Positions 35,391-55,645 are shown, numbered from the stretch's first letter. The stretch is DNA of 64,000 nucleotides from Candidatus Cloacimonadota bacterium (GCA_963667255.1 OY762940.1:864001-928000), one strand, 5' to 3'. Made by a program: numbers and translations. The notes: generated by a model not told the origin, from the sequence alone.

Positions 35391-35408
35391 AAAAAAAGCG
35401 AGGAAAAG

Positions 35409-36875: not shown

Positions 36876-36892
36876 AAATAAATAAATTATTG

Positions 36893-36924
36893 AAAGAGTC
36901 TCTATAATAAGAGGCTCTTTTTTT
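36893..36924 (+). terminator. Intrinsic terminator
   Basis: AAAGAGTCTCT-ATAATA-AGAGGCTCTTT followed by a T run. Confidence 0.8.
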
Positions 36925-37127
36925 GTTTGGCAGACAATTCGAGTATTTTTTTACTCTAAATTTTGTAAAAGGGGAAGTAAGTGTACATTTTCTCCAGTAT
37001 TATTATTTGACAAATAGTGTTATATTTAACCTATAGTTTATAGGAGTTTGATTATAGCAAGATTTGCGATTCCCTCTTTCTTTGTTATTTGTTTATTGCG
37101 TTAGAAGATTGATTAAGGATAGGATTG

Positions 37128-39086
37128 ATGATAAAAAAGTTGCTTTTTATATTATTGACTTTAGTGATTTATTTCGCTATTTCTTGTACATGCAATAGCA
37201 ATCCTTTTACTCCTTATGAAATAACTGCAACGGATAGTCTTTCCGTTACCTTAGTTTCCCCTGCCAACGGAGCAACAAATCAAGATACAAGTGTGATATT
37301 GAGTTGGAGTGGAACTGCAGAAACTTATGATGTGTATTTAGGAACGGATTCCACCAGTCTTAGTAAAATTATAAGCACAGATAGCACAAATTGTATAAAG
37401 AGCGGACTAAGCAAAGGGACAACATATTTTTGGAGAGTGGTAGGTATAAGAGGCAGTGTGAGCGATACAAGTGTTATTAGGTTTTTTACCACAAAAATAA
37501 ATGTGTCTCTGATTTCTCCTACCAATGGAGCAACAAATCAGGACACAAGCGTAACATTGAATTGGAGTGGAACAGCTGAAACCTATGATGTGTATTTGGG
37601 AACTGATTCCACCAGTCTTAGTAAAATTATAAGCACAGATAGCACAAATTGTATAAAGAGCGGACTAAACAAAGGGACAACATATTTTTGGAGAGTGGTA
37701 GGTATAAGAGGCAGTGTGAGCGATACAAGTGTTATTAGGTTTTTTACCACAAAAATAGATGTGTCTCTGATTTCTCCTACCAATGGAGCAACAAATCAGG
37801 ACACAAGTGTAACATTGAATTGGAGTGGAACAGCTGAAACCTATGATGTGTATTTAGGAACGGATTCTTCTAGTCTTACTAAAATTTATAGTACCAATAG
37901 TACAAGTTATACGAAGAGCGGACTAAACAAAGGGACAAAGTATTATTGGAAAGTGGTAGGTAACAAAGGTAGCGTGAGCAGTGCAAGTGATGTTTGGAAT
38001 TTTACTACAAAAATAAGTGTTCTTCTAATTTCCCCTGCCAACGGAGCAACTGAACAACCGACCGATTTGACTTTTAGTTGGAGTGGAACAGCAGAAACCT
38101 ATGATGTGTATTTGGGAACTGATTCCACCAGTCTTAGTAAAATAGCAAGCAACTTAACAGCAACCACTTATACAAAAAACGGGTTAGATGAGATAACTAC
38201 TTATTATTGGAAGGTAGTGGGCACAAAAGGCAGTGTGAGTGGGACAAGTGGTGAGAGAAAATTTATTACTAAGCTTAATTTGAATTTGGAAATGGTGGCG
38301 GTGGACTCAGGTACTTTCCAAATGGGGCTTGGCACATTAGTTGCCACTGATACTGTGCATTCTGTAACCATAAGTAAATCTTTTGAGATATGCAAATATG
38401 AGATAACCAATGATCAAGTGGTAAGAGTATATAATTTGGCAAAGAAGAAATTAAGTGGTCTGAGTTTTAGTTCTACAGCTGTGACTTATAATAGTAATAA
38501 AATATTGGATTTAGAAGCGGGTGCGTGCTACATTGAATATGCATCTTCTTCTGATACATTATATGTAGAAGAGGGCAAAGGGAAATATCCAGTAACTGTA
38601 ATCACTTGGGAAGGAGCAACTTCTTTTGCAGAGTTTATGAATGCTTTATCAGGAACTGACAAATATAGATTACCTACTGAGGCTGAGTGGGAATTTGCAG
38701 CCAGAGGTGGTAAAAGTAGCAATGGTTATATTTATGCTGGTAGCAATACCATAGGTGATGTAGCTTGGTATTTAGACCATTCTTCCACTACTGATAATAC
38801 TTCTAGCAATTGGAAAACTAATCCCGTGGGGAAAAAAAATCCTAACGAACTGGGGATTTATGATATGAGTGGAAATGTTGGTGAATTGTGTTCAGATAGG
38901 AAAGGAAATTATAGCAGTAGCAGTCAAACCGACCCTACAGGAGCGAGTAGTGGCACTGAGCGTGTTTATCGTGGTGGTTCATGGTGTCATGGCGAAGATA
39001 TTTGCAGAGTTTATTGTCGTTCTTATACTTTTAGTTCTACGAGTTCTAGCACTATGATAGGGTTTCGTATAGCTCGTAGTAAGTAG
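37128..39086 (+). CDS. Lipoprotein with four 86-aa FN3-like repeats and a C-terminal FGE-sulfatase (SUMF1/CLec-fold) domain
   Basis: Lipobox FAISC; GTFQMG, KYEITN, YPV..ITW, RLPTEAEWEFAARGG, PNELGIYDMSGNV.E, RGGSW, IGFRIA. Confidence 0.88.
   Translation: MIKKLLFILLTLVIYFAISCTCNSNPFTPYEITATDSLSVTLVSPANGATNQDTSVILSWSGTAETYDVYLGTDSTSLSKIISTDSTNCIKSGLSKGTTYFWRVVGIRGSVSDTSVIRFFTTKINVSLISPTNGATNQDTSVTLNWSGTAETYDVYLGTDSTSLSKIISTDSTNCIKSGLNKGTTYFWRVVGIRGSVSDTSVIRFFTTKIDVSLISPTNGATNQDTSVTLNWSGTAETYDVYLGTDSSSLTKIYSTNSTSYTKSGLNKGTKYYWKVVGNKGSVSSASDVWNFTTKISVLLISPANGATEQPTDLTFSWSGTAETYDVYLGTDSTSLSKIASNLTATTYTKNGLDEITTYYWKVVGTKGSVSGTSGERKFITKLNLNLEMVAVDSGTFQMGLGTLVATDTVHSVTISKSFEICKYEITNDQVVRVYNLAKKKLSGLSFSSTAVTYNSNKILDLEAGACYIEYASSSDTLYVEEGKGKYPVTVITWEGATSFAEFMNALSGTDKYRLPTEAEWEFAARGGKSSNGYIYAGSNTIGDVAWYLDHSSTTDNTSSNWKTNPVGKKNPNELGIYDMSGNVGELCSDRKGNYSSSSQTDPTGASSGTERVYRGGSWCHGEDICRVYCRSYTFSSTSSSTMIGFRIARSK
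37243..38274 (+). repeat. Four tandem 258-bp intragenic repeats
   Basis: Units start at 37243, 37501, 37759 and 38017; units 1 and 2 are nearly identical over their 3' two-thirds. Confidence 0.92.
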
Positions 39087-39163: not shown

Positions 39164-40009
39164 TCACCATCTCTTGTGCATCCAAAACCACTGTTCAGGA
39201 TATTGTAAGATGTATTTTTCTAACGACTTATTTATTTTTTCGGTCAATTCAGGAATTTGTTCTTTGGTGTAGTCTCGACCGTCAAAAGGCTTTTCGGCGA
39301 TAATTTTAAACCCTTTTTCGGTGCGGACACAGAAAATCGGTTGGAGCATAGCACCCGCTTTGATGGCGAATTTCGCTGGACCTTGGAATACAGATGCGGG
39401 ATGTCCGAGCCAAGTTTGTTGGAGTCCAACCTTGCGAGCGTTTTGGTCAACCATGATGCCGATACCTTCATCGTTTTTTAGGGCTCGCAGAACATCTCGG
39501 AAAGCGGTTTCCAAAAAAATACTGGGAACACCGTTGGACAAGCGGATTTTCTCCACATATTTATCGATGTATGGATTTCGCATTCGTTTTGCCAAGCCGT
39601 TCACTTTGTAGCCAATGACCTTCGTCATATAACGCATTCCGATTTCCCAGTTGCCGATATGCATATTGGGGTAGAGGATGCCTCTGTGTTGGCTGTGAGA
39701 ATATTCCAGATTTTCCATTCCGACTACTTCAAAATTCTTCAACAATTTTTGTTGATTGCAAAAGAAAAATTCGTAAGCTAACAGACCGAGATTGTAATAA
39801 ATTTGGGTGCAAAGGGAATTTATCTCACTATCATTCTTATCGGGAAACACCATTTTTAGTTGCTGAACGACAACTTTTCTTCTTATTTTGGAGATAGTCA
39901 TTATTCTGGTTAGAGCGAATTTTTGCACAAATCCGGGCATTGGCAGAAAAATTGCTTTGAAAAGTTTAAATCCCGAATATTCTAAGATGTTTTTGAGATT
40001 ACTATTCAT
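39164..40009 (-). CDS. Lipid A lauroyl/myristoyl acyltransferase family (LpxL/HtrB-like)
   Basis: HIGNWE, NPYID, MVDQN, PEQWFWMHKRW. Confidence 0.9.
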   Translation of the reverse strand: MNSNLKNILEYSGFKLFKAIFLPMPGFVQKFALTRIMTISKIRRKVVVQQLKMVFPDKNDSEINSLCTQIYYNLGLLAYEFFFCNQQKLLKNFEVVGMENLEYSHSQHRGILYPNMHIGNWEIGMRYMTKVIGYKVNGLAKRMRNPYIDKYVEKIRLSNGVPSIFLETAFRDVLRALKNDEGIGIMVDQNARKVGLQQTWLGHPASVFQGPAKFAIKAGAMLQPIFCVRTEKGFKIIAEKPFDGRDYTKEQIPELTEKINKSLEKYILQYPEQWFWMHKRW

Positions 40010-40778
40010 AGTAGGTTTCGATCCTTTTATACCAACCGGAGAGCCATCTTTGTTCATGAGGCGACATTTTTACTCTGCGTTTGAGAACATATTTGGCTGC
40101 ATCGGCAAAATCGTGAGCGGGAGAGTCTGTCAGATTTTCCATCTTCTCCAGCACTTGTAGCAGACCCCAGTGGTAACCGTTGCAAGACTCTAGAGCGTTA
40201 AGACCTTCTCCTTTGAAATTGACATAATCCAGCATGGCGTAAATTCCGTTGGCTGTTGTAGCGAGTTCGTTGATATTTTTTTTCACTTTCTCTTTGTGGT
40301 CGCTTGCATTTATGATTTTGGGGAGAGCCTCTTGCAATCGAAGAACAAGAAATTTGGTTTGCTCTTCTTGGGTATTTTGCAAAAATCTGTAAAGTTCCAC
40401 GCGTTTGGAGCTGTCGAAACCGGAATTGAACTGTTCTTCCGAGTTCCAAGGGCAAGTAGTAGAGCTGTTTAGCCAACTTGGCAGGCAAAAGTTGGTGCTT
40501 TCCAAATAGGAAATGAATTTGGGGAAACTCTCCACGAATTTTTTCGTCTCAGCATCAGGATACCAAATAAAATGAGCAATTCCCAGAGATAAGAATTTTT
40601 CGTTGGCGTTCCATTGCAATAGGTTTGAATAGTGGAGATTTGTCTCATTTTTGAAAATCTTGTGTGCCAAAATTTCTGCTTGCGACTTAGGGATTTCTAT
40701 TTCTATTGAGTTTAACAAGTTGAAAAAAGAGGCAAGTATAAAAATTATTAAAAATTTGGTATTTTTATTTTCTTTCAT
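40002..40778 (-). CDS. Exported hypothetical protein
   Basis: Signal peptide; distinctive motifs SLGIAHFIWYP, FVESFP, DYVNFKGEG, WGLLQVL; overlaps the next gene start. Confidence 0.7.
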   Translation of the reverse strand: MKENKNTKFLIIFILASFFNLLNSIEIEIPKSQAEILAHKIFKNETNLHYSNLLQWNANEKFLSLGIAHFIWYPDAETKKFVESFPKFISYLESTNFCLPSWLNSSTTCPWNSEEQFNSGFDSSKRVELYRFLQNTQEEQTKFLVLRLQEALPKIINASDHKEKVKKNINELATTANGIYAMLDYVNFKGEGLNALESCNGYHWGLLQVLEKMENLTDSPAHDFADAAKYVLKRRVKMSPHEQRWLSGWYKRIETYYE

Positions 40779-43091: not shown

Positions 43092-44025
43092 TTTGTTGAA
43101 ATATAAGAAGATAGGGATTTTGACTCATTCTAATCCTGACCCTGATGCTTTGGGTTCTTGTTTTGCTATGCAGATGATTTTGGGCAAAGAGAGATGCGAT
43201 GTGGTTTTGGAGTTTGGTTTGACCAGACCTCTTTTTGCGGAGTTTGGTGCGGTTGTGTTGGCAGGCGATGATTTGCATTACGATGCTCTTTTGGTGTTGG
43301 ACGCTCACCAGTCCAAGAGGTTGGGATTGTTGGAGGAATTTGTTGAGAATTTTGCCAGAGATATTTTTATTATCGACCACCATCGTGTAGGTGAGTGCAA
43401 AATTCCTACAATGGCGGAACTCATTGACCCAACTGCGGTTAGCACCGGAATTTTGGTTTTTGAACTGTGTTCGTCTTTCACTTTGCATTGGGATGAGGAA
43501 GCACGAGAAAAGTTTGCCCGAGCTATCTATTACACGATTTTGGGCGATACCGACGGTTTCCAAAATCGCAATATTGATGCAAGATGTTTTTCTGTTTGTG
43601 CGGAATTGGTAAAGTTTGGATTGAAAGCCGGTTTAGCTTTTGAAAAATTCTATTGTCAGAAAAGTTTGAACGATTTCAAATATATGGCAGAGATTTATGA
43701 GTCAATCCAAGAGTTTGAGCAGGGGAAAATAGTTTTTGCTTTTAGTAGTTTGGAGTTGCAAAATCGGCTTGGCTATGTCTATCGGGGGCTTCCGCAGATG
43801 ATGGGGGAGCTGAAAAAGTCTGCAAACTATGAGATAATTGTCATTTTCAAAGAGAGAGAAGATAATTTGTATAAACTTAGTTTTCGCTCCAAGTCGATTG
43901 ATGTCCAGTCTGTTTGCAAAAAATACGGCGGAGGCGGTCATTTATTGGCTTCCGGTTGCGAGATAGCGGGGAGTTTGGAAGATACAAAAAGGCAGATATT
44001 GGAAGTATGCAAGAGCCTTCTTTGA
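43081..44025 (+). CDS. nrnA: DHH/DHHA1 phosphoesterase (NrnA-like)
   Basis: HSNPDPDALGS, IDHH, DTDGF, LSFRSK, GGGGH..ASG. Confidence 0.88.
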   Translation: MLSSLLKYKKIGILTHSNPDPDALGSCFAMQMILGKERCDVVLEFGLTRPLFAEFGAVVLAGDDLHYDALLVLDAHQSKRLGLLEEFVENFARDIFIIDHHRVGECKIPTMAELIDPTAVSTGILVFELCSSFTLHWDEEAREKFARAIYYTILGDTDGFQNRNIDARCFSVCAELVKFGLKAGLAFEKFYCQKSLNDFKYMAEIYESIQEFEQGKIVFAFSSLELQNRLGYVYRGLPQMMGELKKSANYEIIVIFKEREDNLYKLSFRSKSIDVQSVCKKYGGGGHLLASGCEIAGSLEDTKRQILEVCKSLL

Positions 44026-44867
44026 GCGGTGTTCTTTTGGTAGATAAACCCGCAGGAATAAGCTCTTTTGGGGTGATAGCGAGACTGCGGAAAATTTTGA
44101 AAATCAAGAAGATTGGGCATTGCGGGACTTTGGACAATTTTGCTACGGGAGTTTTGATTATATTGATTGGCAAGGCAACTCGTTTGGCGAGGTTTGTGTC
44201 AAATCAGGACAAGGTTTATGAGGCGACGATTTTGTTTGGGGAGAAGACCAATACCGCCGATATTACCGGAGAAATAGTTGAAACTGGAGGTCTTCCGTCT
44301 GATTTACCGACAGATTTTGAGGGGAAAGTTTTGGCAATCTCTTCGCAAATTCCACCTATCTTTTCGGCAATAAAAGTCGAGGGGAAAAGAGCTTATGCTC
44401 TTGCTCGTGATGGTAAAGAGATTGAGATGAAGCCTCGGGAAATCAAAATTTTTGAGTTCAAAGTTGGCAGTTTTGATAAGCAACGGTTGAATTACACGGC
44501 GAGAGTTTCCAAAGGCACATACATAAGAACTTTGAGCGAAGATATTGCGGGGATGTTGGGCACTGTGGGAACGACAGAAAATTTGCGACGAACAGAGTGT
44601 GCTGGATTTGGCATAGAGAAGTGCGTAACTATTGATGATGGAACAAGATATGAAGTGATTAGAGATAGAATTTTGCCCGCTGATGTTTTGCTGAAAGATT
44701 TTCCTGAAATGACTCTGACGCAGGAAGAGTATGTGTGTTTTAAAAATGGTAATTTTATTGAGAAAAAAAGTGATAAAAATGGTTTTACACGAATGTATTA
44801 CGAACAATTATTTGTTGGTGTGTCGTCCGTTGAACAGGAGATGGTAAAACCGCAGATAGTTTTTTAA
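44007..44867 (+). CDS. truB: tRNA pseudouridine(55) synthase
   Basis: DKPAGISS, KIGHCGTLD, QIPPIFSAIKVEGKRAY, SKGTYIRTL. Confidence 0.95.
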   Translation: MQEPSLSGVLLVDKPAGISSFGVIARLRKILKIKKIGHCGTLDNFATGVLIILIGKATRLARFVSNQDKVYEATILFGEKTNTADITGEIVETGGLPSDLPTDFEGKVLAISSQIPPIFSAIKVEGKRAYALARDGKEIEMKPREIKIFEFKVGSFDKQRLNYTARVSKGTYIRTLSEDIAGMLGTVGTTENLRRTECAGFGIEKCVTIDDGTRYEVIRDRILPADVLLKDFPEMTLTQEEYVCFKNGNFIEKKSDKNGFTRMYYEQLFVGVSSVEQEMVKPQIVF

Positions 44868-44868
44868 A

Positions 44869-47235
44869 ATGGTAAGTTTTATGAATAGATTGGTAAGAGT
44901 TTTATTTATTGTTGTTTTTTCTTTTAGTTGCTTGTGTGGAGCAGGTGTTGAGAGGGATATTAGCGAAGCTTTTAATACCGAGGCAAAGCGAACTGAATGG
45001 TGGAACGGTCTTGAATATCAGTGGAAGTTGGCTTTTAATAAACTTCTTGGTTACGGGAAAAGTGTAAGGAAACCGGAAGATGTGCGATTGGAAGGTTTGT
45101 TGTGCCGTAAAGCTCTTTTGCTATACAGCTCTGAAATCACCAATCTATCCGGTGTGAAAAATCTCACACATATAGAAAATCTCAGTTGCTCCTACAATAA
45201 GATTACTAATATTCAAGGGTTAAAAAATCTTACTAATCTGAAAATATTGAAACTTAGCGACAACCGAATTAAATCTTTGGAAATTTTGAAAAATCTAAAG
45301 GATTTGGAATATTTGCGAGTTGATTTTAACGATTTGCAGGATTTGAAGGGGTTGGAGGAGTTATCAAAACTTAATCGGGTGTATGCAGACAATAATTTTA
45401 TCTCTTCGCTTGCTCCTTTGGCTGATAAGCCGGAGTTGGAAGAACTTTATATAAATGATAATAGTATTGTCTCTCTTCTTCCTCTGAAAAATAACACAAA
45501 ATTAAAAATGTTACAGGCAAGTAATAATCAACTTCAAAATATAGATGGATTGTCTTCTCTTGAGAATTTGGAGAAAGTTTATATTTTTAATAATAATTTG
45601 GTGAGTTTGGAAGGTGTCCAAAATTTGAGAAAATTAGATATTTTTGCTTATTCGGAAAATAGTGAGATATTGCCTGATGAAGAAAAAGATAAAGTGAGAG
45701 ACTTGTTTGCTAAAAAGAAAAAATTTAGGGTTAGCATTGCCAGTGCTTCGGTTTCTATTTTAATTTTTGGTCTTGTTATTGTATTTTTGGTGAAATTGAT
45801 TTTACGGATAAGAGTTAACCGAAAGAGAAGAAGAGAGTTTTTGCGTTTGCATAAACTGTTTTTGGACAAGACGGCAGGATATTTTGATAATGATGCCCGT
45901 CTCTATCAGTGGTGGGAAAATCTTAACCATCAGTGGCGAAGAGTGTTTAATGTAGAGTTGGATAACGGAGCGTCTTTATTTGTGCCGAAACCTTCCGATT
46001 TACGAAAAATTTTAACCATTACTTTTCTTGAGATTAATGTTGAAGATTTGAGTGATTTGTCAGGATTGAATAACTGCACGGAATTGAGATACTTGAGATT
46101 TTACAATGAGAAACAAAAATTTTTAGATTTATTTTCAAACATTGAATTTCTAAATAGATTTCCTAAACTGGAGAAGCTTAGGTTTTCCACCGGTAAGATT
46201 AGGAAAATCAAAAATTTTGCAAAGTTGAATGAAAAATTTAGGGTTGCTATTCCCGAAAATGAATCGGATTTTGTTAAGAGCGGTAGTATTATTGAATTAC
46301 CTTGTGAGAGAAGGTTACGATATAAGTATCCGATAGTGGCAATAGGGAATTTTGAGGGGTTGCATTTAGGGCACGCCAAGATTTTGAACAGACTTTATTC
46401 TCGGGCTCAAGACACTGGTGGAGAAGCACTTATTCTTACATACAAGGTGCACACAAGAGAGCATTTTTTGAAACTTGCCAATAAACCTATAGCACCTTAT
46501 ATGGTTTTGGACAAAAAACATAAAGAAAATTTGTTGTTTCATAAATTTGGAGTGCATTCTATTTTGTATTTAGATTTTGAACAAGGTCTTTCCGAGTTGC
46601 CGGCTGAGGAGTTTTTTAAGACTATTTTGGTTGATAAGTTGCATATTAGGGAGATAATTTGTGGATACGATACTCGATTTGGCAAGGGACGAGAGGGAGA
46701 CTATAAATTGCTTTTGAAACTGTCGGAACCTTATAAAATCAGAGTTAGACTTGTAGAGCCTTTGTTGGTTGGCGGGAAGATTGTGCGGAGTGAGTTGATA
46801 AGGGATATGATTAAAAACGGAGAGATTGCCGGAATTAAGAATTTTCTCTCGCGTCCTTATTCCATATCAGGAACAGTGATGGAAGGGAAGAAAATTGGTG
46901 GAGTCTTGGGATTCCCGACACTCAATGTGAAGCCCATACAAGAGTATAAACTTTATCCGCCCAAGGGAGTTTATATCACGCATACTTTTATTGGTGGTAT
47001 AGGATATTATGGGCTTACCAATATTGGATTTGCTCCGACTATTAGAGACAGTGAAAAAACAGAAACAATTGAAAACTATCTTTATAAATTCAAGGGTAAA
47101 GTCTATGGGCAAGAGGTTAATGTTGTTTTTCTAAAATTTTTAAGAGACGAAAAGAAGTTTGCTTCTCGCAAAGAATTGGTGGAGCAGATTAAAATAGATT
47201 TGGAGAAATTAAAGCGGTATATAAGGGTTCATTAA
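44869..47235 (+). CDS. ribF: Signal peptide-LRR-TM fusion with a C-terminal bifunctional riboflavin kinase/FAD synthetase
   Basis: From about aa 487: GNFEGLHLGH, GYDTRFGKGREG, G..LGFPTLN, GVY, NIGFAPT, FLRDEKKF. N-terminal 22-aa LRRs. truB-ribF synteny. Confidence 0.85.
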   Translation: MVSFMNRLVRVLFIVVFSFSCLCGAGVERDISEAFNTEAKRTEWWNGLEYQWKLAFNKLLGYGKSVRKPEDVRLEGLLCRKALLLYSSEITNLSGVKNLTHIENLSCSYNKITNIQGLKNLTNLKILKLSDNRIKSLEILKNLKDLEYLRVDFNDLQDLKGLEELSKLNRVYADNNFISSLAPLADKPELEELYINDNSIVSLLPLKNNTKLKMLQASNNQLQNIDGLSSLENLEKVYIFNNNLVSLEGVQNLRKLDIFAYSENSEILPDEEKDKVRDLFAKKKKFRVSIASASVSILIFGLVIVFLVKLILRIRVNRKRRREFLRLHKLFLDKTAGYFDNDARLYQWWENLNHQWRRVFNVELDNGASLFVPKPSDLRKILTITFLEINVEDLSDLSGLNNCTELRYLRFYNEKQKFLDLFSNIEFLNRFPKLEKLRFSTGKIRKIKNFAKLNEKFRVAIPENESDFVKSGSIIELPCERRLRYKYPIVAIGNFEGLHLGHAKILNRLYSRAQDTGGEALILTYKVHTREHFLKLANKPIAPYMVLDKKHKENLLFHKFGVHSILYLDFEQGLSELPAEEFFKTILVDKLHIREIICGYDTRFGKGREGDYKLLLKLSEPYKIRVRLVEPLLVGGKIVRSELIRDMIKNGEIAGIKNFLSRPYSISGTVMEGKKIGGVLGFPTLNVKPIQEYKLYPPKGVYITHTFIGGIGYYGLTNIGFAPTIRDSEKTETIENYLYKFKGKVYGQEVNVVFLKFLRDEKKFASRKELVEQIKIDLEKLKRYIRVH

Positions 47236-47236
47236 T

Positions 47237-47602
47237 ATGAAAATCAAAAAATTATTAGAGATACTTGATGGGGAATTGCTTAGTGATGAAAAGCATTTGG
47301 AGTATGAAGTGGATTACGGTTTGGCTTCTGATCTTATTAGTGACCTTTTGATGTGTGCTCTGTATCCGGCTGCTCTTTTTACGGGGCTTGTCAATCATCA
47401 AATAGTAAGAGTAGCGGAAATGATTGAGTTGCAGGCGATTATCTTTGTGCGAGGCAAGAAGCCAAGAGAGGAAATTTTGCAAATGGCTGCTGATCATGAT
47501 ATGCCGGTTATCTGCACAGAAAAGTCTCTTTATGCGGCATGTGGTTTGGCTTATCAGGGAGGATTGGAGACATCTCCAATAAAATTGAGTATCAATGAAT
47601 AG
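47237..47602 (+). CDS. DRTGG-domain protein
   Basis: ASDLISDLL, TGLVN.Q..RVAEM, IIFVRGK.P, YAACGL. Confidence 0.8.
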   Translation: MKIKKLLEILDGELLSDEKHLEYEVDYGLASDLISDLLMCALYPAALFTGLVNHQIVRVAEMIELQAIIFVRGKKPREEILQMAADHDMPVICTEKSLYAACGLAYQGGLETSPIKLSINE

Positions 47603-48074
47603 CTTTGTTTATAGCAAGGATAATAGTTTAAATCCTGATTCGTTTATGATAGAACTCGGTCAGCCGATGATGAAATACGATTTTTCCATCAAATCTAAAG
47701 ATTTTATCTCTTCCGGAGAGGCGACCACTAAGGTAAAGAAACAACTCAAGGAGCTTGGTATTGATGCTGTTCCACTTAGAAGGTTTGCAGTGGCAAGCTA
47801 TGAGGCGGAGATTAATGTTGTGGCACATTCAATCGGCGGAAAGATGGAAGTTGGTATTTATTCCGAATTTGTTTATTTGAAATTTATAGATAATGGACCG
47901 GGAATTGTGGATATAGAGAAGGCTATGCAACCAGGGTATTCTACCGCTGATGATTTGGCTCGTTCTATGGGATTTGGAGCTGGGATGGGATTGCCCAATA
48001 TCAAAGATAATGTAGATATTATGCGGTTATTTTCCGATGGTTACACCAAATTGGAATTGGTGGTTTTTTATTAG
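47595..48074 (+). CDS. Anti-sigma-factor-like Ser/Thr kinase (RsbT/RsbW-type HATPase)
   Basis: YEAEINVVAHS, DNGPGI.DIEKAM.PGYSTA, GFGAGMGLPN. Confidence 0.82.
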   Translation: MNSFVYSKDNSLNPDSFMIELGQPMMKYDFSIKSKDFISSGEATTKVKKQLKELGIDAVPLRRFAVASYEAEINVVAHSIGGKMEVGIYSEFVYLKFIDNGPGIVDIEKAMQPGYSTADDLARSMGFGAGMGLPNIKDNVDIMRLFSDGYTKLELVVFY

Positions 48075-48087
48075 AGGATGATTTGTT

Positions 48088-49695
48088 ATGAAAGGCAAAG
48101 AGGCTGTTCAAGAGATTAAAGAAAAGTGCATTGGTTGCACAAGGTGTGTTAGGGCTTGTCCTGTTTCGGCTATTCGTCTTAGAAATGGGAAAATAGAGAG
48201 AAATAGTGATATATGTATTAGCTGTGGTCATTGTATCAAGATTTGTCCCGTTGGAGCTATTGAGAGCGTTTTCGATGAGTTTGAAGAGATTTTGGACAAT
48301 CCCAAATTCAAGTATAGAGTTGCTCTTTTGTCTAATGTTTTCATCGGTCAATTCCCTCGAAAAGTCAGTTATGATATGGCTGTTGATGCTTTGTTAAAAT
48401 TGGGATTTGATGAGGTCATAGATGAGAATATGATTACGGGAATCATGGCTCCTATTTTTGCAGAGAAGCTGAAAAAGACTAAAATCAGACCTTTGATTTC
48501 TTCTAATTGCCCTGCAATTGTTCGTCTTATTCAGACAAATTATCCGTCGTTGCTTTCTCATATTTTGCCTTTGGAATCTTCAGTTTGCATTTTAAATGTT
48601 TATTACAGAGAATATTTGGTAGGGCTTAAAGGTTTGTCTCCGGAAGAGATAGGGATTTTTTATATCGCTCCGTGCTCTGCCCAAGTTAATGCTCAAAAAA
48701 ACCCTCTTGGGCATGATAAGTCTCTGCTTGATGGTTCTCTTGCTATGAAAGATGTTTACAACAAGATTATGAATATTTGCTTTTATCAGGAGCAAGAAAA
48801 TTTAGAGAAAAAGAAGGATAATGAGAATCTTGTTAAGCATGAGAATTGGGGAATTTATATTTCGGAAGGAAATCAGATAAAAAAAAGCAATCTCAAAACT
48901 TTGGCTGTCAGTGGGATAAAAGGGGCAAAAGATATTTTATCCAAAATAGAGGGTGGACAGCTGGAATATTTTGATTATGTGGTCTTGCGTAGTTGCACCA
49001 ATGGTTGTGTCGGTGGAGACTTGAATGTTGCTAATCCATTCCTTGCTACCAATCGAATCAGCTCTTCCAATATTGAGTTTAAGCCGATAGAGAAAGAGCT
49101 ATTTTACAAGCTTTTTAAAGAGAAAAAATTTAGTTTTCAAAAAGAAATAAAGCCTTTGGAGCATAATGTTGACAACAGTTCCATAAAAGGTAGGATAATA
49201 AAGATGAAAAGGTATGGTGATATTCAAAAACTTTTGCCCGGGAAAAATTGTGGTATCTGTGGTTGTCCGACTTGTGCTGATTTGGCGAAGGAAATTGTGG
49301 AAGGGAAGGCTAAATTTTCCGATTGTGTTTTTAACATTAAAGAGAGGAAGAAAATTTCTCTACTGGAGGTTTTGGAATATATCAAGGGCAAAGTTATTAC
49401 AAAAGAACAGGATTTATCCGAAATTTGTGTAGAGAACGCTTATGTTGGTGATTTGTTGTCCGATGTTATGGCTTCTGCTGGAGGATGTCAAGTTTGGATT
49501 ACTATTATGCAACATCAAAACTCTGTTGCCGTGGCTTCTCTTTTGGATATCAGGGCAATTATTTTTGCCAAGAATAAGATGCCGGACGAACGCTCCATTG
49601 AAAAAGCTAATGAAGAGGGGATAGTGATGATAGGTAGTTCGTATAATTCGTTTAAAATTTCAGGTATTTTGCACAATTTGATATCGGTAAAGTAA
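48088..49695 (+). CDS. [FeFe]-hydrogenase-like putative sensory protein (2x[4Fe-4S], H-domain-like, FeS domain) fused to DRTGG
   Basis: Two CxxCxxCxxxCP motifs; ISSNCPA, IAPCSAQ, SCTNGCVGG; LPGKNCGICGCPTC; C-terminal YVGDLLSDVM. Confidence 0.78.
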   Translation: MKGKEAVQEIKEKCIGCTRCVRACPVSAIRLRNGKIERNSDICISCGHCIKICPVGAIESVFDEFEEILDNPKFKYRVALLSNVFIGQFPRKVSYDMAVDALLKLGFDEVIDENMITGIMAPIFAEKLKKTKIRPLISSNCPAIVRLIQTNYPSLLSHILPLESSVCILNVYYREYLVGLKGLSPEEIGIFYIAPCSAQVNAQKNPLGHDKSLLDGSLAMKDVYNKIMNICFYQEQENLEKKKDNENLVKHENWGIYISEGNQIKKSNLKTLAVSGIKGAKDILSKIEGGQLEYFDYVVLRSCTNGCVGGDLNVANPFLATNRISSSNIEFKPIEKELFYKLFKEKKFSFQKEIKPLEHNVDNSSIKGRIIKMKRYGDIQKLLPGKNCGICGCPTCADLAKEIVEGKAKFSDCVFNIKERKKISLLEVLEYIKGKVITKEQDLSEICVENAYVGDLLSDVMASAGGCQVWITIMQHQNSVAVASLLDIRAIIFAKNKMPDERSIEKANEEGIVMIGSSYNSFKISGILHNLISVK

Positions 49696-50409
49696 ATGTT
49701 ATGTAAAGCTGATTTGCATACACATTCTGTGTTGTCTCCGTGTGGAGATTATTCTATGTCTCCGTCTCTTTTGTTTGAGAAAGCCAAGAAACTTGGGTTC
49801 AAGATGGTGGCTATTACGGAGCACAACTCCTTGTCCAATGCGTTGGCTTATTCCAAAATTGCCGACAAATTTGGTATTCATTACATTTTCGGTGTGGAGA
49901 TTCAAGTAGATTTGGAGATTCATGTTCTTGCTTATTTCCCCGATTGGAGTGCTGCTAAGTTGTTTAATAGTGAACTTTATGAGGTTCTGCCTAATATAAA
50001 AAATAATTATGGACTTTTTGGGGATCAGGTTTTGATAGACGAAAACGAAATGGTTATCGGATTTGAGGACAAATTGCTTTTAAATTCCCTTTCTTGGGAC
50101 TTGCAAACAGCGTATAATAAAGTGAAAAAGTATGGTGGTTTGTTCGTTGCGGCACATGTTGATGCGGAAAGTTATAGCATCAAATCGCAACTTGGTTTTC
50201 TTCCTGATGAAATTATGTTTGACGGTTTAGAGGTTGTTGGGGATATTTGTGATTGGAATAACAATAACCTTCCGATTGTCAAAAACTCTGATGCTCATTA
50301 TCTAAAAGATTTTGGCTGTAGATATACGGAGTATGAAATGAGTGATTTGAGTTTTGAGAGTTTGAAAAAATCGTTATTGGGTAGAAAGTTCAAAATAAAA
50401 TCTAATTAA
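49696..50409 (+). CDS. PHP-domain phosphoesterase
   Basis: DLHTHSVLSPC, AITEHN, GVEI, HVLAYF, AAHVD, NSDAH. Confidence 0.88.
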   Translation: MLCKADLHTHSVLSPCGDYSMSPSLLFEKAKKLGFKMVAITEHNSLSNALAYSKIADKFGIHYIFGVEIQVDLEIHVLAYFPDWSAAKLFNSELYEVLPNIKNNYGLFGDQVLIDENEMVIGFEDKLLLNSLSWDLQTAYNKVKKYGGLFVAAHVDAESYSIKSQLGFLPDEIMFDGLEVVGDICDWNNNNLPIVKNSDAHYLKDFGCRYTEYEMSDLSFESLKKSLLGRKFKIKSN

Positions 50410-50414
50410 GGGGG

Positions 50415-50891
50415 ATGTTAATGGATACTTGTGATAGTCCTTTGTATGCTGAACTCAAGAAAATCATTGATTCCAAAAAAGATTTGCGAGATCCTTTGAT
50501 TGAGGTGTTGAGAGAGGCACAATTGTTGTTTGGGTATTTGCCCAAAGAGGTATTGGTGTTTATTGCCAGAGAGATGAAGTTGCCTATAAACAAAATTTAT
50601 GGGGTTGTTACTTTTTACAATTTCTTTTCTCTCAAGCCTCGTGGAAAGTATGTTATCAATGTTTGCACGGGAACTGCGTGCTATGTAAAAGGTGCTGCTC
50701 GTGTGGTGGAGATGTTTGAGGAATCTTTGGGAATCAAATTGGGCGAGACGACGCCTGATAAGAAGTTTACTCTCTCGTCTGTGAGATGTGTGGGTGCGTG
50801 TTCTTTGGCTCCAGTCGTGGTGATAGGCGATGAGACTTATGGTAGAGTTGCTACCAAAGAGCAGATAAAGAAAATATTGGAGAATTTCTAA
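50415..50891 (+). CDS. Hydrogenase [2Fe-2S] subunit HydC (NuoE-like), copy 1
   Basis: GYLP, GVVTFYNFF..PRGKY, VCTGTAC, RCVGACSLAP. Confidence 0.92.
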   Translation: MLMDTCDSPLYAELKKIIDSKKDLRDPLIEVLREAQLLFGYLPKEVLVFIAREMKLPINKIYGVVTFYNFFSLKPRGKYVINVCTGTACYVKGAARVVEMFEESLGIKLGETTPDKKFTLSSVRCVGACSLAPVVVIGDETYGRVATKEQIKKILENF

Positions 50892-50906
50892 ATTTTTGGT
50901 TGAGAG

Positions 50907-51455
50907 ATGGAAGATATTTCTTTACATTTATTGGATATTTTACAAAATTCGGTTAGTGCTGGTGCGACTCTGATAACTTGTCGTTTCGTGAAGATTGCAG
51001 ACAGATTGCAATTGTCCATTGAGGATAATGGGCGAGGGATGGACGAAGAGACGGTGAATGCTGCGTTAGACCCTTTTTATACGAGCAAGAGTTTTCGCAA
51101 AAAGAAAATTGGTTTGGGTATTCCGCTATTTGCTCAGAGTGCCAAGTTGTCGGGTGGAGATTTCAGTTTGGAGTCGAAAGTTGGGCAAGGAACACGGATT
51201 AAAGCTGAATTTGTGGTTTCCAATATAGATGCTTTGCCTCTCGGGGATATTTCGCTATCTTTGGTAAACTGCATAGTTGCTCATCAAAGTGTTGATTTTG
51301 TTGTAGAGATTGTGTGTGATACGGAAGAGGAGTTTAGTTTGGATACACGGGAGATAAAGAAAGAGATGGAAGGAATTTCTTTGAATGAACCAGTAGTTAG
51401 AAAATACTTAGAAGAAGTAGTTAGTCAACAAGTATTGAAATTGGAGGATAGATGA
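50907..51455 (+). CDS. Stand-alone HATPase (histidine kinase-like ATP-binding protein)
   Basis: HLLDILQNSVSAGA, IEDNGRGM, DPFYTSK, GLGIP, SKVGQGT. Confidence 0.85.
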   Translation: MEDISLHLLDILQNSVSAGATLITCRFVKIADRLQLSIEDNGRGMDEETVNAALDPFYTSKSFRKKKIGLGIPLFAQSAKLSGGDFSLESKVGQGTRIKAEFVVSNIDALPLGDISLSLVNCIVAHQSVDFVVEIVCDTEEEFSLDTREIKKEMEGISLNEPVVRKYLEEVVSQQVLKLEDR

Positions 51456-51805
51456 AATCTTTGGCAGATTTAAGAAAATTGAAAGAAGAAGTTAAGAAGA
51501 AAATGAATTTGAGAGATTCTGATTATAAGTATAAAATAGTGGTGGGTATGGGGACATCGGGGATTGCGATGGGTGCCAGAGAAGTGATGAAAACTTTTTT
51601 GGATGAGATAAGTAAAAGAAGTATTAGTGGAGTCATTGTTACCCAGAGCGGAGAAAAGGGTGCTTCCAGTATGGAGCCGGTTGTGGATGTGATAGAGACT
51701 GAGGGGAAGACGGTTACTTATTGTCAGATGAATGCCGAGAAAGCGAGAAAAGTGGTTAATGAGCATATTGTGAATGGGACGATTGTTAACGAGTACTTAA
51801 TATAG
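51452..51805 (+). CDS. Thioredoxin-like ferredoxin subunit (HydD/HndB-like), usual Cys ligands replaced
   Basis: MKSLADL, IVVGMGTSGIAMGAREV, QSGEKGASSMEPVV, EHIVNG. Confidence 0.75.
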   Translation: MKSLADLRKLKEEVKKKMNLRDSDYKYKIVVGMGTSGIAMGAREVMKTFLDEISKRSISGVIVTQSGEKGASSMEPVVDVIETEGKTVTYCQMNAEKARKVVNEHIVNGTIVNEYLI

Positions 51806-51816
51806 AGGATCGAGGT

Positions 51817-53640
51817 ATGTATAAAAGAGTCGATATCTTATTATGTTTTGGCTCGGGGTGTGTGTCAGCCGGAGCTCGAGGGATAAAAGAGGAACTTCAA
51901 CGCTTAGTTCGTGAAAATAAAATAGATAATGAAGTCAATATTATAGAGACGGGCTGTATGGGTCCGTGTGATTACGGTCCACTGATGCTGATATATCCCG
52001 AGGGAGTTTTTTACAAAAAGCTTACTCCGGAAGATATGAAAGAGGTAGTTGAGGAACATTTGATAAAAGGTAGGGTTGTTGAGCGACTCCTGATGCACGA
52101 TGATACTGTGGCTGATAGGGCTATCAGAAATGTGGAAGATGTGCCTTTTTACAAAAATCAAACGAAAGTTGCTTTGAAATATTGTGGCTACCTGAATCCT
52201 GAATCTTTGGAAGAGTATGTGGCGGTAGATGGATATTCCGCTTTGGGCAAGGTTTTGGAAGAGATGAAACCAGAAGATGTGATTAACGAAATTAAAATTT
52301 CCGGCATTCGTGGTCGTGGTGGAGGAGGATTTCCCACTCATCTCAAATGGAGTTTTGCCCGTTCCGCCAAAAGTGAAGATGGTGTAAAATACATGATTTG
52401 CAATGGCGACGAAGGTGACCCGGGAGCTTTTATGGACAGGTCGCTTTTGGAGGGAGACCCGCATAGAGTATTGGAAGGAATGATGATAGGGGCTTACGCT
52501 ATCGGAGCCAGCAAAGGTTATTTCTACATCAGAGCCGAATATCCGTTGGCTATCGAGAGGATAAAACTCGCTATCAGCAAAGCTCGAGAATACGGATTAA
52601 TTGGCGATAATATTTTGGGTAGTGACTTCTGTTTTGATGCTGAAGTGCGGACAGGTGCTGGAGCTTTTGTTTGTGGAGAGGAGACAGCTCTTATCTCATC
52701 TATCGAGGGCAAGAGAGGTCATCCGAAGCCGAAGCCACCGTTTCCTGCGAACAAAGGATTGTGGGACAAACCGAGCAATATAAACAATGTTGAGACTTTT
52801 GCTAATATTTCATCGATAATCTTGAATGGTGGACAGTGGTTTGCCTCTATGGGCACGGAGAAGAGCAAAGGGACAAAGGTGTTCGCTCTGACCGGAGATG
52901 TGAAAAATACCGGTTTGGTGGAAGTGCCGATGGGGATCACGATTGGAGAGTTGATAGACAATGTCGGTGGTGGTATCAGCAAAGGTAATTTCAAAGCCGT
53001 GCAACTTGGTGGTCCGTCCGGAGGATGCTTGACCAAAGAGCATTGGGATGTGCCGATTGATTACGATTCGCTCACTGCCAAAGGGGCAATGATGGGCTCT
53101 GGCGGTGTGATAGTGATGAACGACTCTAAATGTATGGTGAATGTGGCGAAATTCTTCTTGGAATTTTCTCTGGAGGAGTCTTGTGGCAAGTGCTCTCCGT
53201 GCAGAGTTGGGCTGAAGCATATGCACAATATTTTGGAGAAGATTACCAGCGGGCAAGGTTGTATGGAGGATTTGGATGAGCTGGAAAGTGTTGGCAAGTT
53301 GATAAAAGCGACTTCTTTGTGCGGACTGGGACAATCTGCACCAAATCCTGTTCTTTCTACAATGAAATATTTCCGAAACGAATACGAAGCACACATCAAG
53401 GATAAAAGGTGCGATGCTTTGGTTTGCACGGAGTTATTGCATTTCAATATTAACAAAGATAAATGTGTGGGATGTTCGTTGTGTGCCAAAAAATGTCCTG
53501 TTAATTGCATAAGCGGGTCAAGGGAAGAGAAATTTGACATTGCCCAAGATGCCTGTATCAAGTGTGGAAACTGCCATGATGTTTGTCCGGTAAAGGCTGT
53601 GGAAAAATTGGCTGGTAAGGTTGAGTGTGAGGAAGAGTAG
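51817..53640 (+). CDS. Hydrogenase flavin subunit HydB (NuoF-like), copy 1, bifurcating-type signatures
   Basis: N-terminal CxxxxC...CxxxC; GRGGGGFP; DEGDPGAFMDR; GTKVF; GGPSG; ESCGKCSPC; C-terminal 2x[4Fe-4S]. Confidence 0.93.
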   Translation: MYKRVDILLCFGSGCVSAGARGIKEELQRLVRENKIDNEVNIIETGCMGPCDYGPLMLIYPEGVFYKKLTPEDMKEVVEEHLIKGRVVERLLMHDDTVADRAIRNVEDVPFYKNQTKVALKYCGYLNPESLEEYVAVDGYSALGKVLEEMKPEDVINEIKISGIRGRGGGGFPTHLKWSFARSAKSEDGVKYMICNGDEGDPGAFMDRSLLEGDPHRVLEGMMIGAYAIGASKGYFYIRAEYPLAIERIKLAISKAREYGLIGDNILGSDFCFDAEVRTGAGAFVCGEETALISSIEGKRGHPKPKPPFPANKGLWDKPSNINNVETFANISSIILNGGQWFASMGTEKSKGTKVFALTGDVKNTGLVEVPMGITIGELIDNVGGGISKGNFKAVQLGGPSGGCLTKEHWDVPIDYDSLTAKGAMMGSGGVIVMNDSKCMVNVAKFFLEFSLEESCGKCSPCRVGLKHMHNILEKITSGQGCMEDLDELESVGKLIKATSLCGLGQSAPNPVLSTMKYFRNEYEAHIKDKRCDALVCTELLHFNINKDKCVGCSLCAKKCPVNCISGSREEKFDIAQDACIKCGNCHDVCPVKAVEKLAGKVECEEE

Positions 53641-53666
53641 GGGATTAAAAAGAAAAGGAGATTATT

Positions 53667-54104
53667 TTGAGTATAATGAATAAATACTTGCCTGAAAAGG
53701 AAAATATTTTGGAAATTTTACATTTAGTTCAAAATGCAAATCCAAAAAACTTTTTGAGCAAAGAAGATTTAGCCGAAGTCGCCAACTATTTACATTTGCC
53801 TTATAATCAAGTTTATTCGGTGGCAAGCTTTTACTCGATGTTTTCATTAAAGCCACGGGGAAAATTTGTTATCAAGGTCTGCCAGTCTCCACATTGCGTA
53901 GTAAATGGTTCTGATAATCTTTTGGATTTTCTAAAGAAAAGGGTTAAAAAAAATCCTGAAATCTCGTTGGAAGAGTGTCAGTGTCTTGGTGTTTGTGGTA
54001 ATTCGCCAGTGGTTTTGGTAAATGACAAAATTTATGGTGATATGGATAAAGAGAAGTTGGAAAAACTTTTGAAAAATTTAGAAGGTGGTAAAAATGTTTT
54101 ATAG
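53667..54104 (+). CDS. HydC/NuoE-like subunit, copy 2
   Basis: VYSVASFYSMFSLKPRGK, VCQSPHC, QCLGVC. Confidence 0.88.
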   Translation: MSIMNKYLPEKENILEILHLVQNANPKNFLSKEDLAEVANYLHLPYNQVYSVASFYSMFSLKPRGKFVIKVCQSPHCVVNGSDNLLDFLKKRVKKNPEISLEECQCLGVCGNSPVVLVNDKIYGDMDKEKLEKLLKNLEGGKNVL

Positions 54105-55644
54105 AACACATCTTCTGTTTGTGAAGGACGATAACTCTATTGATAAGGGGTTGCAAGAAGTTTTAAGAGTTCTCAACGAAGAGTTGGTAAAATACGGATT
54201 GGAAAAGGAAATAGGTGTTTTGCAAACTGGTTCTCTCGGATATATTTCCAAAGGCGTTCACTTTGTCGTTTATCCTGATAATTTGCTTTATACCAAGATT
54301 ACTCAAGAAGACATTCCTTTGATAGTGCAGGAACATTTTTTGAAAGGGCGTCCGGTAAAGAGGCTTTGTGAGAGTGCCAAAAGAGATGTGGAATTTGCTT
54401 ATTCGGAAAGGATAGTTTTGAAAAATTCCGGCAAAATTGACCCTGAATCTATAGATGAATATATTGCTGTTGATGGTTATCAAGCTCTGGGCAAAGCTTT
54501 TGAAATGGGTAGAGAAGCTACTTTGCAGGAGATAAAGAAGTCTAATCTTCGTGGTCGCGGTGGAGCTGGGTTTCCCACTGGCATCAAGATGGAAATGACT
54601 GCAAATCAGAGTGAAAAGCAAAAGTATATTGTGGTGAATGCTGATGAGGGAGAGTCGGGAACTTTCAAAGACAGACTTATTATGGAAGGAGACCCGCATA
54701 AGCTCTTGGAAGGAATGGTGATAGCTGGTTTTGTGGTGAGGGCGGATACAGGCTATATCTATATTCGTGGAGAATATAGTCTTTGTGTGCAAAGGTTAAA
54801 AATCGCTATAGAACAAGCACATAATTATGGATTGTTGGGCAAAAATATCTTAGGTAGCGGTTTCGATTTTGATGTCATTATTAAGCTGGGTGCTGGCTCG
54901 TATGTGTGTGGAGAGGAGACCGCATTGCTAAACTCTCTGGAAGGAGGCAGAGGCAATCCTCGTTTTAAGCCACCTTACCCGGGGGAGAGAGGTCTTTGGA
55001 ACAAGCCAACTGTGATAAACAATGTTGAAACTTTGACAAATATACCGGCAATAGTGGAGAAAGGTGGAGAGTGGTTCGCAGGAATTGGGACACCAGAATC
55101 GTGCGGGACGAAAGTTTATACTATTTTGGGTGAAGTGAACAATCCGGGATTGATAGAAGTTCCTATGGGCACAACATTGAGGGAAATTATCTCCAAATAT
55201 GGAGGTGGACTGAAAGCGGATAAGAAGTTTAAAGCTGCTTTGGTGGGTGGAGCTGCCGGAATGTTTTTACCTGAGCGGTTATTAGACATCAAGATGGATT
55301 TTGAGAATTTGTCCAAAGAATCTGCTGTTTTGGGTTCAGGAGCTATTTTGATATTGAGTGAAGATGCTGACATACTCAGGATTTTGACTTCTATTTTGAA
55401 GTTTTTCTTGCATGAGTCTTGCGGTAAGTGCAGTGCATGCAGGATTGGCTATAAGATGTTGGTTACCTTGCTGGATAAGATAGTTTCTGGTGAAGGCAAA
55501 TCGGAAGACATTGATAAAATGGTTGAGATTGCCAATGTGATGAGAGTAACCTCATTCTGTGCTTTGGGTCAATCGTCGATTATGCCTATTGGCAGTATTA
55601 TCAAATATTTTAAGGGAGATTTTAAAAGGTTTACAGGAGAGTAA
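54094..55644 (+). CDS. HydB/NuoF-like flavin subunit, copy 2, non-bifurcating-type signatures
   Basis: GRGGAGFP; DEGESGTFKDR; GTKVY; GGAAG; ESCGKCSAC; lacks N-terminal Cys ligands and the C-terminal ferredoxin domain. Confidence 0.9.
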   Translation: MFYRTHLLFVKDDNSIDKGLQEVLRVLNEELVKYGLEKEIGVLQTGSLGYISKGVHFVVYPDNLLYTKITQEDIPLIVQEHFLKGRPVKRLCESAKRDVEFAYSERIVLKNSGKIDPESIDEYIAVDGYQALGKAFEMGREATLQEIKKSNLRGRGGAGFPTGIKMEMTANQSEKQKYIVVNADEGESGTFKDRLIMEGDPHKLLEGMVIAGFVVRADTGYIYIRGEYSLCVQRLKIAIEQAHNYGLLGKNILGSGFDFDVIIKLGAGSYVCGEETALLNSLEGGRGNPRFKPPYPGERGLWNKPTVINNVETLTNIPAIVEKGGEWFAGIGTPESCGTKVYTILGEVNNPGLIEVPMGTTLREIISKYGGGLKADKKFKAALVGGAAGMFLPERLLDIKMDFENLSKESAVLGSGAILILSEDADILRILTSILKFFLHESCGKCSACRIGYKMLVTLLDKIVSGEGKSEDIDKMVEIANVMRVTSFCALGQSSIMPIGSIIKYFKGDFKRFTGE

Positions 55645-55645
55645 A

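Follow-up and report, generated by a model that had tools for sequence, protein, structure and literature searches.

The ribF gene of a Candidatus Cloacimonadota bacterium encodes its riboflavin kinase/flavin adenine dinucleotide (FAD) synthetase as the inner end of a protein laid out like a membrane receptor. RibF is essential, usually soluble and a target for antibacterials; here it is preceded by a predicted signal peptide and by two leucine-rich repeat (LRR) modules with a predicted transmembrane (TM) helix between them. We found this gene in a 64,000-nucleotide stretch of the genome (GCA_963667255.1 OY762940.1:864001-928000; hereafter the window), where positions 44869-47235 (+), immediately 3' of truB, form a single stop-free frame of 788 codons. 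That the product is one polypeptide with a predicted single-pass, receptor-like architecture is well supported, because the layout is conserved in seven homologues reaching down to 43% identity, the gene is the sole ribF of the genome, and the signal and TM segments have stayed hydrophobic despite sequence drift. We tentatively favour the reading that it is a membrane-anchored FAD synthetase that a ligand may well tune at the step from flavin mononucleotide (FMN) to FAD. The original prediction, made from the sequence alone, had proposed either a receptor-enzyme or a membrane tether; its fusion held up, its single-pass architecture is well supported as a prediction, and both of those options are still plausible.

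The gene after truB was originally described as encoding 788 aa. Its frame was confirmed, and the protein is most likely 784 aa long because the second ATG, at 44881, is the start in each of the six congeneric genomes. A predicted cleavable type I signal peptide (44881-44943; all features of the gene are on the plus strand) is hydrophobic with a basic N-terminal end in seven of seven homologues, with small-x-Ala sites picked out by eye. It leads into a helical WW cap (cap 1, 44971-45105) and LRR module 1 (LRR1, 45106-45654), predicted to be periplasmic, in which eight SDS22/internalin-type repeats of 22 aa lie in register over residues 80-255 and end in a last strand, agreeing with an earlier count of 8-9. 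The predicted TM helix, V288-L312 (45730-45804), is modelled within a long helix of approximately residues 270-331. A second helical WW cap (cap 2, 45883-46020) and LRR module 2 (LRR2, 46021-46278), predicted to be cytoplasmic and made of about three degenerate repeats, pass without a linker into the FMN adenylyltransferase module (46282-46839) and the riboflavin kinase module (46846-47232). The cap motif noticed earlier on both sides of the helix marks true kinship, as WW-cap/LRR module 1 is a homologue of module 2 (28% over 111 aa, E 2e-8). Pfam matched LRR_4, FAD_syn (489-641) and Flavokinase (660-784), and the protein passed TIGR00083 (ribF) with a score of 199.2 against a cut-off of 184.35; the PRK05627 models remained below their own cut-offs (best 235.6 vs 241). 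The best Protein Data Bank (PDB) match had an E of 7e-34, and both modules stand in type I order. The anatomy given in the original prediction is right. Between the helix and the RibF part the fusion frame contains no Met, in keeping with the missing in-frame ATG of that prediction.

The fusion is real and lineage-restricted. The source genome, 98.9% complete, consists of one 1.59-Mb contig. FAD_syn was matched in 57 of the 61 genomes searched: in all six single-contig congeneric genomes it lay in open frames of 785-810 codons, and in the other 51 matched genomes of the class it lay in ordinary frames of 296-354 aa. A seventh homologue, P0008 (776 aa, 43% identical, on a 228-kb contig), has the same architecture, and the fusion proteins range from 776 to 784 aa across homologues. 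All six congeners and P0008 carry LRR and RibF in one frame rather than as separate genes. We rejected a mis-join, both because six of six single-contig congeners are fused and because contigs from two runs of one sample (possibly the assembly's own source) span the stretch with zero differences. A search of a genome collection returned five related loci, all in Candidatus Cloacimonadota/Cloacimonadales metagenome-assembled genomes, and in a search of proteins clustered at 50% only P0005 and P0008 had one near-full-length stretch among the best 150. A profile of the cytoplasmic cap-LRR matched 15 of 232 genomes of the phylum, strongly only in the six congeners; the nine others gave weak partial matches only (E 1.5e-6 or weaker), left uninspected. 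The only long frame among the phylum FAD_syn matches listed, one of 559 aa in genome G129, runs from truB into ribF over a gap of Ns and was discarded. A metagenome scan gave ten generic LRR loci, with no RibF fusion in the two inspected, and an atlas search gave generic LRR clusters at 0.90 or lower, which was uninformative.

Each of the seven homologues has two clearly hydrophobic windows, one N-terminal (Kyte-Doolittle 1.6-2.3) and one central (1.9-3.8), and none has a further window above 1.2 on that scale. No Cys in the signal peptide is conserved across the homologues. The central segment is 26% identical among the six congeners, with 0 of 26 columns invariant, and is always hydrophobic, which is the pattern expected of a true TM segment. 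The signal-like N-terminus and hydrophobic helix of the original prediction were therefore recovered in all seven homologues. Its orientation had been taken from the positive-inside rule, but both flanks are basic (+4 to +8 before the helix and +5 to +9 after it), so that this rule alone leaves the orientation unfixed. We predict the orientation from the signal peptide and from the need of RibF for ATP. The receptor-like layout, with signal peptide, ectodomain, one TM helix and inner catalytic domain, is suggested by the hydrophobicity pattern of all seven homologues and by the structural model, though both TM flanks are basic. Full-length AlphaFold2 modelling with seven sequences gave a cap, an LRR solenoid (predicted local distance difference test, pLDDT, approximately 80-95), a long helix through the TM segment, a cap, a short LRR and a Rossmann fold. 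The cytoplasmic part alone (459 residues, 30 sequences) was modelled at a pLDDT of 87.6 and a predicted template modelling score (pTM) of 0.83, and this confident, compact model suggests that LRR2 is packed in a fixed way on RibF.

The fusion appears to be the cell's only source of FAD. The genome contains one Flavokinase and one FAD_syn match, both inside the fusion frame, and genome profile searches found no second ribF and no FAD synthetase of the RibL or PAPS-reductase type. PAPS_reduct had no match over its cut-off in the genome, and the three CTP_transf_like matches appear to be CoaD, RfaE-II and NadD. The check for a stand-alone ribF thus left the fusion as the sole FAD-synthetase candidate. 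The cell's demand for FAD and FMN shows in its gene content: Pyr_redox_2 had seven matches at or over its cut-off among the ten listed, ApbE was present in five of five genomes searched, and Rnf genes are present. In genome G000, an FMN riboswitch (L054:2359-2471) stands ahead of ribD-ribE-ribBA-ribH.

Motifs were compared between the seven fusions and 30 soluble relatives (the best 30 of 51 by FAD_syn score), in C. ammoniagenes numbering. The kinase half is canonical: G[FY]PT[ALIV]N, GVY, the catalytic E268, R292, F297 and D310 are intact in all seven fusions, and this half probably makes FMN normally. PTLN and ENY, once counted among the altered motifs, are ordinary, because both lie inside the published kinase consensus (PMC2573891; PMC2972280) and both are present in soluble relatives (Leu in 3/30, Tyr in 13/30). 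The other two motifs of that list, GNFEG and RSELIR, are truly altered, and HxGH is kept as stated. The adenylyltransferase half has HxGH and Gx[DN]xx[FY]G in 7/7 fusions and keeps H28, H31, D125, F128, S164, R168 and a hydrophobic flavin pocket (equivalents of F62, L98 and Y106). D25 of the FDG motif is Glu in all seven fusions vs Asp in 30/30 soluble relatives. P58, the second proline of FxPHP, is Thr in all seven vs Pro in 30/30, a change (HP to HT) missing from the original motif list. In SS[TS]x[IV]R, S164 and R168 are kept, with S163 changed in six of seven fusions and T165 in all of them; the protein in the window has D25E, P58T, S163R and T165E. In the C. ammoniagenes FAD synthetase (FADS; CaFADS for this enzyme), substitutions at P56 or P58 abolish FAD synthesis, and P58 is reported to be conserved in all species evaluated (PMC6829536). 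Substitutions of T165 and S164 impair FAD synthesis, those of T165 strongly (PMC3509593), and the enzyme requires the aromatic residues F62, Y106 and F128 (PMC7279473). The protein is best described as a derived RibF orthologue: three motifs and its predicted membrane location set it apart from canonical type I FADS, and it is not FADS type II as defined in PMC2972280, since PTxN and the kinase module are intact. RibF proteins that resemble FADS type II do occur at L005, L007 and L011 (genomes G007, G023 and G047; 99%, 94% and 57% complete), where the kinase half is without PTxN and the catalytic Glu and the genomes have no Flavokinase match.

The non-TM domains showed a nonsynonymous rate (dN) of 0.05-0.24 against a synonymous rate (dS) of at least 1.0 or saturated (4 of 15 possible pairs), which is purifying selection, and the adenylyltransferase module by itself showed a dN of 0.05-0.17 against a dS of 1.3-2.0 (four pairs) and is not decaying. 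Given this selection, the cell's need for FAD and the searches that found no other source, we think that the adenylyltransferase half most probably continues to make FAD, with its site remodelled. The fused RibFs group as a single clade (100/99) within the Cloacimonadota RibFs. On the stem of this clade, in a comparison that omitted three kinase-degenerate rows, the adenylyltransferase half accumulated 0.53 substitutions per site vs 0.07 for the kinase, with bootstrap ranges (0.34-0.76 and 0-0.19) that do not overlap; this adenylyltransferase excess is the largest of 67 branches. Within the genus the order is reversed (0.88 vs 1.15). Four other settings gave a stem contrast of 0.37-0.57 vs 0.07-0.21. 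The six fusions also have the lowest FAD_syn scores among the 57 matches (116-127 bits vs 136-171), a result free of comparator-choice bias.

A candidate ligand surface lies on LRR1. Its concave side is more conserved than other exposed positions (0.61 vs 0.50, p 0.03, with seven sequences; 0.72 vs 0.56, p 0.005, with six), with position classes that were the analyst's choice from general LRR geometry and sequences that are kin. The patch is centred on repeats 2-5, in which N104, Y109, K128, D131, R150 and R170 are invariant. LRR strand positions generally tend toward conservation, and we regard the patch as a lead toward a putative ligand surface, not as proof of one.

There is no other WW-cap/LRR gene in this genome. 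The cap-LRR is found on predicted lipoproteins of the congeners G001 and G003, 30-37% identical to module 1. In G001, a 1368-aa predicted lipoprotein (L073:5462-9568, -) carries seven C-type lectin matches and a WW-cap LRR, its gene being an insertion between two that are direct neighbours in G000; this protein suggests host-facing surface proteins. In G003, an accessory cluster (L072:319-14797) consists of a transposase-like gene, a gene for a DUF285-repeat protein and genes for four predicted lipoproteins that end in a WW-cap LRR, one of which carries Lcl_C. Signal-bearing proteins, among them the Reichenbachiella-named P0043, carry WW-cap LRRs in tandem, and P0055 bears a WW-cap LRR with no evident signal peptide. 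Because it is found on accessory lipoproteins and in signal-bearing tandem proteins, the WW-cap LRR appears to be a mostly exported, mobile module. The distance from the truB stop to the His28 codon is at most 99 nt in 20 of 22 relatives vs 1496 nt here, which implies that an insertion of about 1.4 kb separates truB from ribF. We infer that its source was a mobile surface WW-cap LRR module, which entered there and was duplicated, once, in the ancestor of the clade.

In the ligand-tuned reading that we favour, the signal peptide would export LRR1, the helix would stop transfer, and LRR2 and RibF would remain in the ATP-containing cytoplasm. The kinase half would produce FMN normally, as its intact motifs suggest, and the adenylyltransferase half, on the evidence of purifying selection and of the cell's need for FAD, would produce FAD via its remodelled flavin/phosphate site. 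LRR2 would pack against the adenylyltransferase half, and binding of a conserved partner at LRR1 would be relayed through the long helix and LRR2 to the adenylyltransferase site. This relay would shift the FMN/FAD balance and hence also act on the FMN riboswitch of the riboflavin operon. The sequence evidence tilts toward such coupling, by way of the stem burst, the compact LRR2-RibF model and the conserved concave patch of LRR1. A stronger version is speculative, and we think it doubtful: an extracytoplasmic, possibly host-derived cue on a domesticated surface LRR would directly gate FAD synthesis and, via the FMN pool, the riboswitch and flavin-dependent hydrogenase/Rnf metabolism.

Several results weigh against ligand tuning of a working FAD synthetase. 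Both TM flanks are basic, and the unconserved TM sequence is easier to reconcile with a plain anchor than with a signalling helix that depends on its sequence. The full-length model has a pTM of 0.50 and a poorly modelled kinase, and the helix C-terminal to the TM segment has a pLDDT below 50 in it. Adenylyltransferase activity is not assured, because substitutions at P56/P58 and T165 damage CaFADS. Choosing the comparators by FAD_syn score inflates the counts of positions called invariant, and the contrast in invariant sites is small and only suggestive (4/23 vs 1/18 and 1/30 in TruB). Leaving out P0008, whose presence is required to divide the branch, narrows the stem contrast to 0.82 vs 0.65, and the burst may have no cause beyond a new surface on which LRR2 packs. 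Finally, P0019 has a 419-aa LRR2-RibF form that begins inside cap 2; it lies on a 13-kb contig, is sister to G001, and is either an error or a natural split.

The main rival to ligand tuning is a passive tether or scaffold, which we consider a weaker candidate. The enzyme would be constitutive, and LRR1 would bind an envelope partner merely so that flavin synthesis stays at the membrane, for instance close to ApbE and Rnf, both of which require extracytoplasmic FAD; changes in the active site would be side effects of LRR2 packing. The drifting TM sequence fits this view, as do the purifying selection on all modules and the presence of RnfG/D/E/A and of an ApbE with an N-terminal hydrophobic segment. 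However, an anchor could do without a cytoplasmic LRR and without changes at three substrate-site positions that are otherwise invariant, and apbE and rnf are unlinked to the fusion gene (approximately 233 kb and 262 kb away).

Two further explanations seem improbable to us. The first is that the adenylyltransferase half has acquired a new substrate or product, such as a signalling nucleotide, or only binds nucleotides, with FAD coming from outside or from an unrecognised enzyme. This would account for the substitutions at D25, P58, T165 (7/7 each) and S163 (6/7) against 30 canonical relatives, for the stem burst and for FAD_syn scores that are the lowest among the best 57 matches, and for the loss of a proline whose substitution kills CaFADS activity (PMC6829536). 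It sits poorly with the retained motif residues (H28, H31, D125, F128, S164 and R168) and hydrophobic flavin pocket, and with a genome that encodes many FAD enzymes and de novo riboflavin synthesis and in which no second FAD synthetase was found. The second is that one frame yields two products, an internal TTG or GTG start or proteolysis freeing a soluble LRR2-RibF or RibF from a separate membrane LRR. Codon 325 (45841) is TTG in six of six genomes and is preceded by a purine-rich stretch, and P0019 starts at a Leu-codon position in cap 2. However, that TTG is not unusual, because 7 of 75 invariant Leu columns are likewise all TTG in the six genomes; a Shine-Dalgarno-like word precedes codon 325 in only two of six, the ancestral RibF start has kept no start codon (Gly-Ser stands there), and the reading frame is uninterrupted even in a homologue that is 43% identical. 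The six congeners gave no support for a conserved internal start. An assembly artefact or neutral recent read-through is hardly credible and is already refuted by conservation: the fusion is in frame in P0008 and in each of six closed, independent genomes, with purifying selection. Truncated or mis-joined forms do occur in six cases (P0006, P0007, P0279, P0280, P0282 and P0248). Five of these come from contigs of 8-10 kb and fall into 90% clusters together with intact proteins of 783 aa encoded on closed chromosomes, and the sixth, P0248, repeats the beginning of the G002 protein.

The fusion gene is flanked upstream by truB (44007-44867, +), the ancestral neighbour of ribF, and downstream by a DRTGG-like gene (47237-47602, +) that begins 1 nt after the fusion stop and is kept in six of six congeners. 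The DRTGG-like gene is the first of a hydrogenase cluster (47237-57394) with ATPase-like, Fe_hyd_lg_C, PHP, NuoE/F-like and [FeFe]-hydrogenase-like genes, some of whose names were assigned by reading the sequences. The order of this cluster is the same in 6/6 congeners as far as fetched, and a DRTGG-like gene stands next after ribF in 0 of the 30 soluble relatives. A scan for promoters and terminators was at chance level (22 vs 18.9). Elsewhere in the window, 35379-39086 holds two exported lipoprotein-like open reading frames of 498 and 653 aa, the second with near-identical internal repeats of approximately 86 aa, and 40002-40778 (-) encodes a 258-aa signal-bearing protein with no Pfam match that is conserved in all congeners fetched. 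The closed genomes of the genus measure 1.5-1.6 Mb vs 2.2-4.4 Mb for other near-closed genomes in the same search. Together with the lectin/LRR lipoproteins, these small closed genomes suggest a host-associated life.

A lineage whose sole RibF is predicted to cross the membrane once and to carry a binding domain outside indicates that a core cofactor enzyme can be rebuilt into receptor form. Because this RibF has lost a proline that the model enzyme requires, its remodelled site tests which residues FAD synthesis truly needs. If ligand gating is true, the protein would be a bacterial LRR receptor-enzyme with an essential cofactor as its output, a case of one-component signalling without a kinase, cyclase or DNA-binding output. 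It would then also link an external signal to metabolism by a new route and could serve as a template for engineering enzymes under ligand control.

The fusion resembles type I RibF/FADS (T. maritima 1mrz, C. ammoniagenes 2x0k) in module order, kinase motifs, HxGH and its place after truB. It differs in approximately 470 extra N-terminal residues, which hold the predicted signal peptide, TM helix and two LRR modules, and in its altered FDG, FxPHP and SS[TS]xxR motifs; at 776-784 aa and with two hydrophobic segments it is also unlike the soluble RibF of approximately 310 aa. Its 22-aa LxxLxLxxNxI repeats after a helical cap are those of SDS22/internalin-type LRRs (InlA 2omx, SDS22 6obn, C. tepidum Roco LRR 5il7). 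Unlike the internalins, for which whole-protein hidden Markov models score far below cut-off (80.7 vs 1600; 77.1 vs 1050), it has the WW cap common to Bacteroidota multi-module LRR proteins and the congener lipoproteins, and is joined to a TM helix and an enzyme. Single-pass receptor-enzymes, such as plant LRR receptor kinases and bacterial sensor kinases and cyclases, have a signal peptide, a binding ectodomain, one TM helix and a cytoplasmic catalytic domain. The same parts are predicted in the fusion, but in place of a signalling enzyme its output domain is a synthetase for an essential cofactor, and it has a second LRR inside.

Other RibF/FADS fusions also carry an extra domain. Rhodococcus has a RibB-like-riboflavin kinase fusion (PMC2573891), plants have a FADS-pyrophosphatase fusion (PMC9678776), and we observed P0009-P0012, of 570-620 aa, with a metallo-beta-lactamase-fold domain (PF12706) N-terminal to RibF; their partners are enzyme-type, and no LRR ectodomain was seen in these fusions, whose hydrophobicity was unscanned. 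P0013 (1222 aa, on a 5-kb contig) joins an N-terminal RibF to an unrelated long low-complexity tail and is probably chimeric. The original prediction knew of no described example, and our search of the open-access literature, judged from its listings, likewise found no description of an LRR- or membrane-fused RibF. The nearest functional analogy, and an analogy only, is the mammalian riboflavin kinase that couples TNFR1 to NADPH oxidase (Yazdanpanah 2009, via PMC7719303). That system is non-covalent and eukaryotic and uses a monofunctional kinase, and it likewise places flavin-cofactor synthesis at a surface receptor.

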